Positions 39,482 to 41,642 of a stretch of 64,000 nucleotides of DNA are shown piece by piece. Position 1 is the first letter of the stretch. Every line of letters starts with the position of its first letter. Origin of the DNA: an uncultured bacterium (GTDB lineage Bacteria > Bacillota_I > Bacilli_A > RF39 > UBA660); assembly GCA_949285875.1 (NCBI GenBank), contig CASDZZ010000001.1, positions 7,110 to 71,109 of the forward strand, in the 5' to 3' direction. The translations under genes and the position numbers were made by a program. A model generated the notes under the pieces. It worked only from the letters and a program-made list of their open reading frames with translations, was not told where the DNA came from and did not search any database.

Positions 39482-39613
39482 AATCTCTCCTAACAAAATA
39501 ATTATAGCATATATCGGTAAACATTTAAAACAAAAAAGAAATAAAAGAAGACTTAAAATATATTGTAAAAATGCATAAAAAATAGTATAATTATGACGCG
39601 GTGGTGATTGTGC

Positions 39614-40093
39614 ATGATTATTGATTTAACTAAGTTAATGTATGGTCAAATATATAAATTACCGGTCGAAGGTAAGCTAGTAATTCCAACTGATATATTA
39701 AAAAATACAGATATAAGAAGTATATCTCCTGTTAAGGTAAGTGGTTTCATTTACAATAATGAGGAAGAGCTAGATTTAGAGGTAGTTGTTAGTGGGGTTA
39801 TGGTACTACCTTGTGCTAGAACGTTAAAAGATGTAGAAAGACCTTTTAGTATTGAAATAAATGAGTCTATTGATGAAAATGATGACAAATATTTAAAAAT
39901 TATTCAAAATAGACTTGATATTTTTCCAATTATATGGCAATATATATTAGTGGATGTTCCTTTAAGAGTTCTTCATCCTGATGCTAAAGAAGAACCTATT
40001 TATGGTAATGGATGGTGTCTTATTACTGAAGATGATACGAAGGAAGTAATTGATCCAAGACTCGCAAAACTAAAAGAATATGAGAAAGAGTAA
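39614..40093 (+). CDS. YceD/DUF177 family protein
   Basis: Acidic protein in the conserved position directly upstream of rpmF. Confidence 0.7.
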   Translation: MIIDLTKLMYGQIYKLPVEGKLVIPTDILKNTDIRSISPVKVSGFIYNNEEELDLEVVVSGVMVLPCARTLKDVERPFSIEINESIDENDDKYLKIIQNRLDIFPIIWQYILVDVPLRVLHPDAKEEPIYGNGWCLITEDDTKEVIDPRLAKLKEYEKE

Positions 40094-40108
40094 GGAAGGA
40101 GTGAGAAT

Positions 40109-40315
40109 ATGTTAAAGTTGGATATCCAAACATTTGCAGTTCCATTCAGAAAAATTAGTAAGACAAGAAAAAGAATGCGTCGTACTCATTATAAGATTGA
40201 AGCTAACGGAACAGTAAAATGTCCTAAATGTGGAGAAATGATTAGACCACATAGAGTATGCCCATACTGTGGCAACTATAAAGGAAAAGAAGTTGTTAAG
40301 AAAGAAGCTGAGTAA
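40109..40315 (+). CDS. rpmF: 50S ribosomal protein L32 with a 9-residue N-terminal extension
   Basis: [18 protein letters not shown] plus zinc ribbon CPKCG...CPYCG. Preceded in frame by MLKLDIQTF from an ATG behind GGAAGGAGTGAG. Confidence 0.9.
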
Positions 40316-40356: not shown

Positions 40357-40707
40357 ATGAAGTCTATAGATATAAAAAGGGAATTAGACGATAATAACAA
40401 TGTTTATAATATATTTGTAGATGGAAAAAGATGTGGTAAATTTACGGTAATAAATGATAGCACTAGTATAGAAATACTATTTTTAGAAGAAATTACATAT
40501 AACAAGTTTAGTTTATATTGGAATATAATTTTAAGAGAAATACTTTATTTTGTTTTAGAAAATAATGAACTAGTTGGTAGCGTTTATTACTATGATGATT
40601 CTATTAGAGAAAATTCTTATGATGATGATTTTAAATTTAATTATGATGAAAAAAATAAAGTTTACTATTTACGTAGAAAGAAAATTAATGACAAGCTAGA
40701 TTTTTAA
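40357..40707 (+). CDS. Hypothetical protein
   Basis: RBS AAGGAGG. No motif recognised. Confidence 0.5.
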   Translation: MKSIDIKRELDDNNNVYNIFVDGKRCGKFTVINDSTSIEILFLEEITYNKFSLYWNIILREILYFVLENNELVGSVYYYDDSIRENSYDDDFKFNYDEKNKVYYLRRKKINDKLDF

Positions 40708-40736: not shown

Positions 40737-41642
40737 ATGAAACATATAAAAAAAATATTATTAATTTTAGTTGGTGTTATTTTCCTTTTTTTTAGTATTA
40801 TATTTGGTAATCAGTATAATGATTCTGCTTCAGCTAGTGTATCTAATATTAATAATAAAGAAGAAAAAACACTTAATAACGAGCTAGTAATTTATTATTT
40901 CGATGTTGGACAAGCTGATGCTATTTTACTTCAAGATGGAGATAAAAATATGATTATCGATGCTGGCAATAATGAAGATGGAGAAAGGTTAACTAACTTT
41001 TTAAAGAATAATTTAGGTATTGGTTCTTTAAATTATGTATTCGCTACTCATCCTCATGAGGATCATATTGGGGGAATGGATGATATCATTAATAATTTTA
41101 ATATAGAAAATTTTTATATGCCAGAAGTTATTACTACGACAAAAACGTTTGAAGATATGCTTGATGCTTTAGAAAATAAAAACATGAGTTTTACGGTTCC
41201 TAAAGAAGATGATAGTTTTATGTTAGGAAGTAGTAAAATAGATGTCTTGCATGTTGGTAATAATGCTAAAGAGTTAAATGATGCATCTATTATTTTAAAA
41301 GTTACTCACGGAGATAATACGTTTTTATTTACCGGGGATGCTAGCAGTAAAGTGGAAAAAGAAATATTAAATAAGAATATAGAAAGTGATGTATTAAAAG
41401 TAGGACATCATGGTTCGTATTATAGTACTTGTGATGAGTTTTTAGATAAGGTAAATCCTAAGTATGCAGTTATTTCGGTAGGAAAAGGAAACTCTTATAA
41501 GCATCCTTCTTTTGAGACCTTAAAAAAGTTAGAAAATAAAAATATCGAAATTTATAGAACTGATGAGGCTGGTACTATTAAGATAACAAGTGATGGTAGT
41601 AATTTAAAAGTTGATAGTGAAAGGACTAATATTGATGGATAA
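40737..41642 (+). CDS. Secreted/membrane-anchored MBL-fold hydrolase (ComEC C-terminal-domain-like)
   Basis: N-terminal TM, FDVGQADAILL, HPHEDHIGG, GHHGS. Confidence 0.8.
   Translation: MKHIKKILLILVGVIFLFFSIIFGNQYNDSASASVSNINNKEEKTLNNELVIYYFDVGQADAILLQDGDKNMIIDAGNNEDGERLTNFLKNNLGIGSLNYVFATHPHEDHIGGMDDIINNFNIENFYMPEVITTTKTFEDMLDALENKNMSFTVPKEDDSFMLGSSKIDVLHVGNNAKELNDASIILKVTHGDNTFLFTGDASSKVEKEILNKNIESDVLKVGHHGSYYSTCDEFLDKVNPKYAVISVGKGNSYKHPSFETLKKLENKNIEIYRTDEAGTIKITSDGSNLKVDSERTNIDG

Follow-up and report, generated by a model that had tools for sequence, protein, structure and literature searches.

A candidate Prp-type propeptide on ribosomal protein L32 in a lineage of uncultured Bacilli

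The rpmF gene and its translation start

The window, by which we mean the whole 64,000-nucleotide stretch of bacterial DNA analysed here, carries on its forward strand a yceD gene (39608-40093; Pfam PF02620 YceD, E 8.3e-15) for the large-subunit rRNA accumulation protein (DUF177), a gene that commonly accompanies rpmF on its upstream side. The yceD stop codon, TAA, occupies 40091-40093, and the ATG of rpmF lies 15 nt downstream of it. Immediately after the stop comes a ribosome-binding site (RBS) on the same strand, GGAAGGAGTGAG (40094-40105), whose core AAGGAG (40096-40101) precedes the ATG at 40109 by 7 nt; AAT fills the remaining gap. The rpmF reading frame (40109-40315, forward strand) encodes an L32 precursor of 68 amino acids, MLKLDIQTF/AVPFRK... 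(a slash marks actual or predicted cut sites throughout), and its codons from 40109 read ATG TTA AAG TTG GAT ATC CAA ACA TTT / GCA GTT CCA TTC AGA. We divide the product into a leader, MLKLDIQTF (codons 1-9, 40109-40135), which is a putative propeptide with a predicted Prp cut after Phe9, and a mature bL32 of 59 amino acids, AVPFRKISK... (40136-40312), which contains the zinc-ribbon cysteines C38, C41, C51 and C54 (precursor numbering). The TAA stop codon of rpmF (40313-40315) is followed by a run of T.

The boundary between leader and mature protein coincides with the boundary of the protein family. The Ribosomal_L32p profile (PF01783, E 5e-26, 91.1 bits, the cut-off being 21.3) matches residues 10-65 at its positions 1-56, so that it begins at Ala10 and the nine leader residues fall outside it. 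All 29 distinct bL32 chains from solved ribosomes in the PDB (E <= 1e-8) align from residue 10 or 11 of the precursor, and none of the 29 aligns to leader residues 1-9. Identity of the mature part to B. subtilis bL32 chains is about 60%, the alignment beginning at Ala2 of the latter. In the Thermus and Deinococcus chains 10px_15, 4v68_B5 and 1j5a_M it is residue 4 or 5 that aligns to Ala10, the mature bL32 of these bacteria retaining about three extra N-terminal residues in solved ribosomes. PF01783 has a single match in the genome, making rpmF its only L32 gene, and on this ground we reject a second, leaderless L32 paralogue.

Could translation start beside Ala10 instead? The codon preceding Ala10 is TTT and the two preceding it are ACA TTT, so no start codon adjoins the canonical N-terminus. 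The leader has just one further start-type codon, the TTG of codon 4, which is separated from the RBS by 16 nt; Ala10 itself is 34 nt away, as against 7 nt for the ATG at 40109. Codons and RBS geometry together reject an alternative start next to Ala10. The annotated, long rpmF start is real and trimming it is unwarranted; for annotation, this means that mature L32 should be predicted from Ala10. A sequence-only reading of the locus had claimed that the ATG at 40109 is the only RBS-supported start, that no start codon stands at the canonical L32 N-terminus and that nine extra residues precede canonical L32, and all three statements hold up against the RBS spacing, the TTT codon, and the family profile and PDB chains.

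Downstream of rpmF the window continues with an open reading frame of 116 amino acids (40357-40707, forward strand), which has a strong RBS (AAAGGAGG) and no Pfam match at E <= 0.01. Beyond it, a frame of 301 amino acids (40737-41642, forward strand) combines an N-terminal membrane or signal segment with HPHEDHIGG, a motif that, judged by eye, looks characteristic of the metallo-beta-lactamase fold, as in the C-terminal domain of ComEC.

L27, Prp and the leader motif

The assembly from which the window is taken, that of an uncultured and very AT-rich gut bacterium, amounts to 1.10 Mb in 46 contigs, with 26.8% GC and about 91% completeness. On its contig C9 it contains the gene order rplU-prp-rpmA, with L27 encoded directly downstream of prp; both the protease gene and the L27 propeptide for which the sequence-only reading had suggested looking are therefore present. 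The product of prp, 101 amino acids long, matches PF04327 with 73.6 bits (cut-off 27), and its residues 5-99 align to S. aureus Prp (4PEO/7KLD) with retention of the His/Cys dyad in GHA...DIVCA; the literature identifies the catalytic dyad of Prp as His22/Cys34. The protein is identified as a Prp (MEROPS C108, PF04327) by its profile match, its retained His and Cys and the location of its gene between rplU and rpmA. It is the single Prp gene found in the 1.1-Mb genome. A genome without Prp would have spoken against the proposal that L32 is processed by this enzyme; here Prp is encoded and its dyad intact.

The N-terminus of the genome's own L27 reads (MLL)MLKLNIQLF/AHVKAQGSTHNGRDS, the cut site being followed by AHVKAQGST. 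The L27 and L32 leaders agree at six of nine residues and have their cut sites in the same register. The L27 frame (L001:1812-2102, contig C9) may start either at GTG 1812 (MLLMLKLNIQLF) or at ATG 1821 (MLKLNIQLF), giving a leader of 12 or 9 residues, respectively. The L27 leader of relatives usually has about 12 residues (M-x-x-L-x-L-N-I-Q-L-F) and the L32 leader 8-9.

Published Prp propeptides include those of S. aureus L27 (MLKLNLQFF/ASK) and B. subtilis L27 (MLRLDLQFF), and a review condenses the substrate motif to MLxx(D/N)LQ(F/L)F/A(S/H)KK, with S. aureus Prp contacting the Phe at P1, the Gln at P3, the two Leu (P6 and P4) and a small residue at P1'. The L32 leader, MLKLDIQTF/A, fits this motif up to P1', with Ile in place of Leu at P4 and Thr at P2; Ile at P4 is also seen in the L27 of the window's family. 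The likeness to the Firmicute L27 propeptide, including the F/A junction, which had been proposed from the rpmF sequence, is thus upheld both by the literature sequences and by the L27 of the same genome. Beyond P1' the fit ends. The review argues that small residues occupy P1'-P2' in Prp substrates, whereas in L32 Ala is followed by Val-Pro-Phe rather than by (S/H)KK; in the L27 of the window's family P2' is His. That the L32 residues after the cut are unlike those of known Prp substrates is a counterpoint to the reading of the leader as a Prp-type propeptide.

How readily might such a motif arise by chance? A six-frame translation of the whole genome contains exactly two matches to L-[ND]-[IL]-Q-x-F-[AS], at the N-termini of L27 and L32, and both are in register with the mature Ala. 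From six-frame residue frequencies about 0.95 matches are expected anywhere in the 2.2 million residues and, assuming some 1100 proteins, about 0.002 at N-termini, where two are observed. The strict motif finds no further Prp-tagged proteins in the genome, and matches to a looser motif are unconvincing as N-terminal sites.

Conservation and patchy occurrence of the leader

The leader is shared by many related genomes. We scanned one genome per prokaryotic species with a DNA pattern for L-[ND]-x-Q-x-F-A-V-P-F-[RH...], which returned at least 119 stretches; 113 of the 119 matches listed are genuine pre-L32 genes, so that at least 113 species-representative genomes carry the leader. Among the matches listed, every carrier is an uncultured gut or rumen metagenome-assembled genome (MAG) between 0.6 and 1.9 Mb in size, and the labels are Bacilli, Tenericutes or Mollicutes; 'Mycoplasma sp. 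CAG:877' and 'Candidatus Fimihabitans intestinipullorum' are among these genomes. Similarly, about 100 of the best 120 database homologues have (M)[ML]KL[DN][IL]Q[LMT]F preceding AVPF, the rest being leaderless or outside the simple AVPF pattern used. As a separate observation, pre-L32 genes of the type found in these small-genome Bacilli occur at L081, L083, L098, L102, L104, L113, L124, L126, L139, L143, L186 and L187 on contigs of species-representative MAGs labelled otherwise, as Muribaculaceae, Paratractidigestivibacter (Actinomycetota) or Ignavibacteriales; the pre-L32 of L098 is nearly identical to that of the window, and these bins look mislabelled or contaminated.

Codon alignments reveal synonymous variation within the leader (TTA/TTG/CTA/CTT, GAT/GAC, ATT/ATC, TTT/TTC and AAA/AAG), the residues being unchanged, and an RBS consistently precedes the leader ATG in leader-bearing genes. 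Because residues are kept in spite of synonymous change and the RBS sits before the leader ATG, we conclude that the leader is translated and under purifying selection; comparison of L32 N-termini across relatives, as the sequence-only reading had advised, places conservation of the extension at the amino-acid level in more than 100 species. Had relatives initiated at a non-canonical codon beside AVPF, the extension would have lost its footing. Instead, TTT or TTC stands directly before Ala in leader-bearing relatives, and ATG or GTG stands there in leaderless ones. In most related rpmF genes, whether or not they have a leader, the same AGGAGTGA element precedes the start codon by 4-7 nt.

Two details of these start regions deserve recording. 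A GTG start directly before the Ala codon occurs in leaderless L017 (G102), L018 (G113) and L029 (G122). Further, many leader-bearing rpmF genes (within L080-L197, for example L081, L085 and L088) have Met at P2, which places an ATG two codons before Ala10 and creates a possible internal start giving MF-AVPF; it has no suitably placed RBS, and the window's gene has Thr (ACA) at this position.

Within a sample of 300 genomes of the class, and among the better matches listed, the leader is found only in the window's family, in 13 of 35 genomes (30 loci read). Relatives lacking the leader share the RBS but continue from it with ATG-GCA. The leaderless genome G182, for example, reads ggagtgagaatATG/GCAGTTCCATTTAGA where the window reads ggagtgagaatATG-TTAAAGTTGGATATCCAAACATTT/GCAGTTCCATTCAGA: the two states are separated by a clean 24-nt difference, exactly eight codons, between Met1 and Ala2. 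When the leader is placed on a tree of 74 genomes built from L21, Prp and mature L27, its distribution implies at least seven changes, four of which are forced by well-supported branches, and a 34-genome tree agrees with this picture.

Patchiness of this kind could be produced by horizontal swapping of rpmF. We reject this cause: the mature L32 types ...RRSHNA..., ...RRTHLKKE... and ...RRTHYKI... (the last being that of the window) track species clades, and each of the three clades contains both leader-bearing and leaderless genes. Since mature L32 follows species clade and not leader status, the tag is, as read from these alignments and trees, gained or lost in place, repeatedly (at least four to seven times), with the mature N-terminus AVP[FA] unchanged. 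Such repeated gain or loss without change in the mature protein fits a removable module; from an extension that is an integral part of the structure, it would hardly be expected. Recurrent loss also means that the tag is dispensable.

Does the L32 leader keep company with Prp and long L27? All 34 family genomes with a recovered L27 locus have rplU-prp-rpmA, the Prp dyad and long L27; as every family genome has Prp, co-occurrence is non-discriminating within the family. We also considered 45 further leader-bearing genomes, chosen for leader diversity: L27 is detectable in 42 of them, in its long form in 42 of 42, and prp adjoins rpmA in 40 of 40 sequenced L27 loci. Among the 52 genomes in which L27 and L32 each have a leader, both proteins show Phe at P1 and Gln at P3 without exception. 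P6 is Leu in 52 of 52 L27 and 51 of 52 L32 leaders, P4 is only Ile or Leu, and P5 is occupied by Asn or Asp apart from four cases, all in L27.

The variable positions change together to some degree. Leu at P4 of L32 is confined to genomes whose L27 likewise has Leu there (10 of 13 genomes versus 0 of 39; Fisher 1.8e-8 as a raw association), an association that comes down to about two phylogenetically independent contrasts, pointing in the same direction, for which a sign test cannot reach 0.05 and which is therefore not significant. Likewise, L32 has Arg at P2 only where L27 has it (3 of 6 versus 0 of 46), the shared residue being limited to one clade. This co-variation, phylogenetically underpowered as it is, may be taken as a hint. 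The leaders of rpmA and rpmF are slightly more alike at the nucleotide level within genomes (17.75 of 24 positions) than between them (17.06 of 24; permutation p 0.0004, phylogeny uncorrected). Yet where residues agree, codon identity is 0.68 within genomes versus 0.70 between, and the shared P2 Arg is encoded by AGA in rpmF versus CGT or CGA in rpmA. With within-genome codon identity no higher and Arg codons that differ, the match is not copied from one gene to the other, and ongoing gene conversion between rpmA and rpmF finds no support as the source of the likeness.

A model of L32 maturation and its relation to known systems

Taking motif, co-resident protease and conservation together, we consider that the nine-residue L32 leader is probably a Prp-type propeptide, and that Prp probably cuts it between Phe9 and Ala10. 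Under this model, translation of rpmF from the ATG at 40109 would yield a pre-bL32 of 68 amino acids, the first nine of which, MLKLDIQTF, would serve as the propeptide. The genome's single Prp cysteine protease would recognise P6 Leu, P4 Ile, P3 Gln, P1 Phe and P1' Ala, as in pre-bL27, and its cut between Phe9 and Ala10 would leave a product beginning AVPFRK. Leaderless relatives, B. subtilis and E. coli arrive at the same kind of N-terminus simply through removal of the initiator Met (the E. coli bL32 N-terminus after Met removal being AVQQNKPTR). This evidence favours the suggestion of the sequence-only reading that L32 is a second ribosomal substrate of Prp in this lineage.

A number of other scenarios might account for the leader. 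It might be removed by a protease other than Prp, or by Prp only incidentally, and be a functionless, neutral passenger tolerated because Prp is present. S. pneumoniae TIGR4 does possess an unrelated alternative protease able to mature bL27, and the repeated loss of the L32 leader shows that it can be dispensed with. If another enzyme were at work, however, we would not expect the leader motif to be the Prp motif in a 1.1-Mb genome where a single Prp was found; and invariant Gln and Phe under strong purifying selection in more than 100 species exceed what neutrality predicts, even though selection to stay cleavable could suffice. On balance we think this scenario unlikely, if the best placed of the alternatives.

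Somewhat less likely again is that the extension, once translated, stays on mature bL32 and forms a structural element peculiar to the lineage, its likeness to the L27 leader reflecting convergence, or shared ancestry with no cleavage. Lineage-specific tails are frequent among ribosomal proteins, and the three extra N-terminal residues of Thermus and Deinococcus bL32 in solved structures indicate that the site tolerates a short extension, which weakens any steric case for obligatory removal of the leader. Retention nevertheless leaves it unexplained why the conserved positions are exactly those recognised by Prp, why the junction lines up with the canonical Ala, and why a structural element should come and go among close relatives at least four to seven times next to a constant AVP[FA]. 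Moreover, the hydrophobic LxLxIQxF segment has little in common with the basic tail after it, which binds rRNA.

Alternatively, the leader might be selected mainly at the level of mRNA, with an AT-rich, unstructured 5' coding region boosting initiation and the peptide irrelevant. Unstructured starts are favoured in highly expressed genes, and the leader codons are very AT-rich. In a genome of 26.8% GC, AT-richness is not special to the leader; and the residues are conserved, with Gln and Phe invariant, where third positions vary. We regard this as very improbable. A wrong start, with translation at or near Ala10 and the upstream codons being untranslated leader RNA, is the least credible reading of all: many leader-bearing genes do have an ATG at P2, but in the window ACA TTT precedes Ala10 and the RBS is spaced for the upstream ATG, leader residues are conserved with synonymous change, and leaderless relatives put the same RBS before ATG-GCA.

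If the leader is a Prp-type propeptide, as we favour, what might it do? bL32 adjoins uL22, its N-terminal part contacts bL17 and bL20, and absence of bL32 together with uL22 accompanies misrouted 50S assembly. Given these contacts and the misrouting, a timing or chaperoning role is conceivable, and we infer that the leader may influence when bL32 enters the 50S subunit. One could go further and picture Prp as a ribosome-maturation protease with two clients and a portable tag that has repeatedly been placed on and removed from bL32; the leader would hold back the rRNA-binding N-terminal tail, and Prp would gate both the bL32 and the bL27 steps of 50S assembly. We offer this larger picture tentatively and think it doubtful as a whole; were it true, it would constitute a bacterial counterpart of the m-AAA-dependent maturation of mitochondrial MrpL32.

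The closest known system is pre-bL27 with Prp, present in Firmicutes, Fusobacteria, Synergistetes and some Tenericutes and Thermotogae and typified by S. aureus Prp (MEROPS C108, rplU-prp-rpmA). It shares with pre-L32 an N-terminal leader of 8-9 residues of the form ML-x-L-(D/N)-(I/L)-Q-x-F/A, situated exactly between the initiator Met and the residue that is the mature N-terminal Ala in other bacteria, and a Prp with the His/Cys dyad encoded in the same genome. The differences are that the carrier here is bL32, that VPF rather than (S/H)KK follows the cut, that cleavage of L32 is predicted from sequence, and that the L32 leader is patchy in the family whereas the L27 leader occurs in every family genome with a recovered L27 locus. 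L32 would thus be a new candidate client of the known Prp/long-L27 system, and its second ribosomal one.

L27 is not the only protein known to bear the motif. The capsid (gp47) and scaffold (gp46) proteins of phage 80alpha, which are not ribosomal, have it at their N-termini and are cut in S. aureus and left uncut in E. coli. A 2022 review of Prp proposes FlhB of B. subtilis as a substrate from a motif match; like L32 here, FlhB is a motif-based proposal only, and it too is not ribosomal. The searchable literature, outside which most subscription journals lie, holds no description of a bacterial L32 propeptide or of L32 as a Prp client. The novelty that the sequence-only reading had supposed therefore stands as far as L32 is concerned, and is to be qualified in that FlhB had already been put forward as a cellular candidate other than L27. 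Prp is seen as an enzyme dedicated to bL27 maturation, and narrow-spectrum antibiotics are being sought against it. If it indeed has another substrate in the ribosome, the picture of Prp in ribosome assembly would change, and close genomes with and without the L32 tag would form a natural series in which to ask what propeptides do.

Mitochondria provide a more distant parallel. Mitochondrial bL32m (MrpL32) is likewise an L32-family precursor, and its N-terminal processing, a task of the m-AAA protease, is needed for mitochondrial translation. The protease in that case is an unrelated membrane AAA+ metalloprotease, the long presequence also serves import, and the Prp motif is not related to it in sequence, so that the analogy is one of logic only. 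Within that limit, if pre-L32 is indeed cleaved in the window's lineage, N-terminal maturation in the L32 family would be a bacterial as well as a mitochondrial process.
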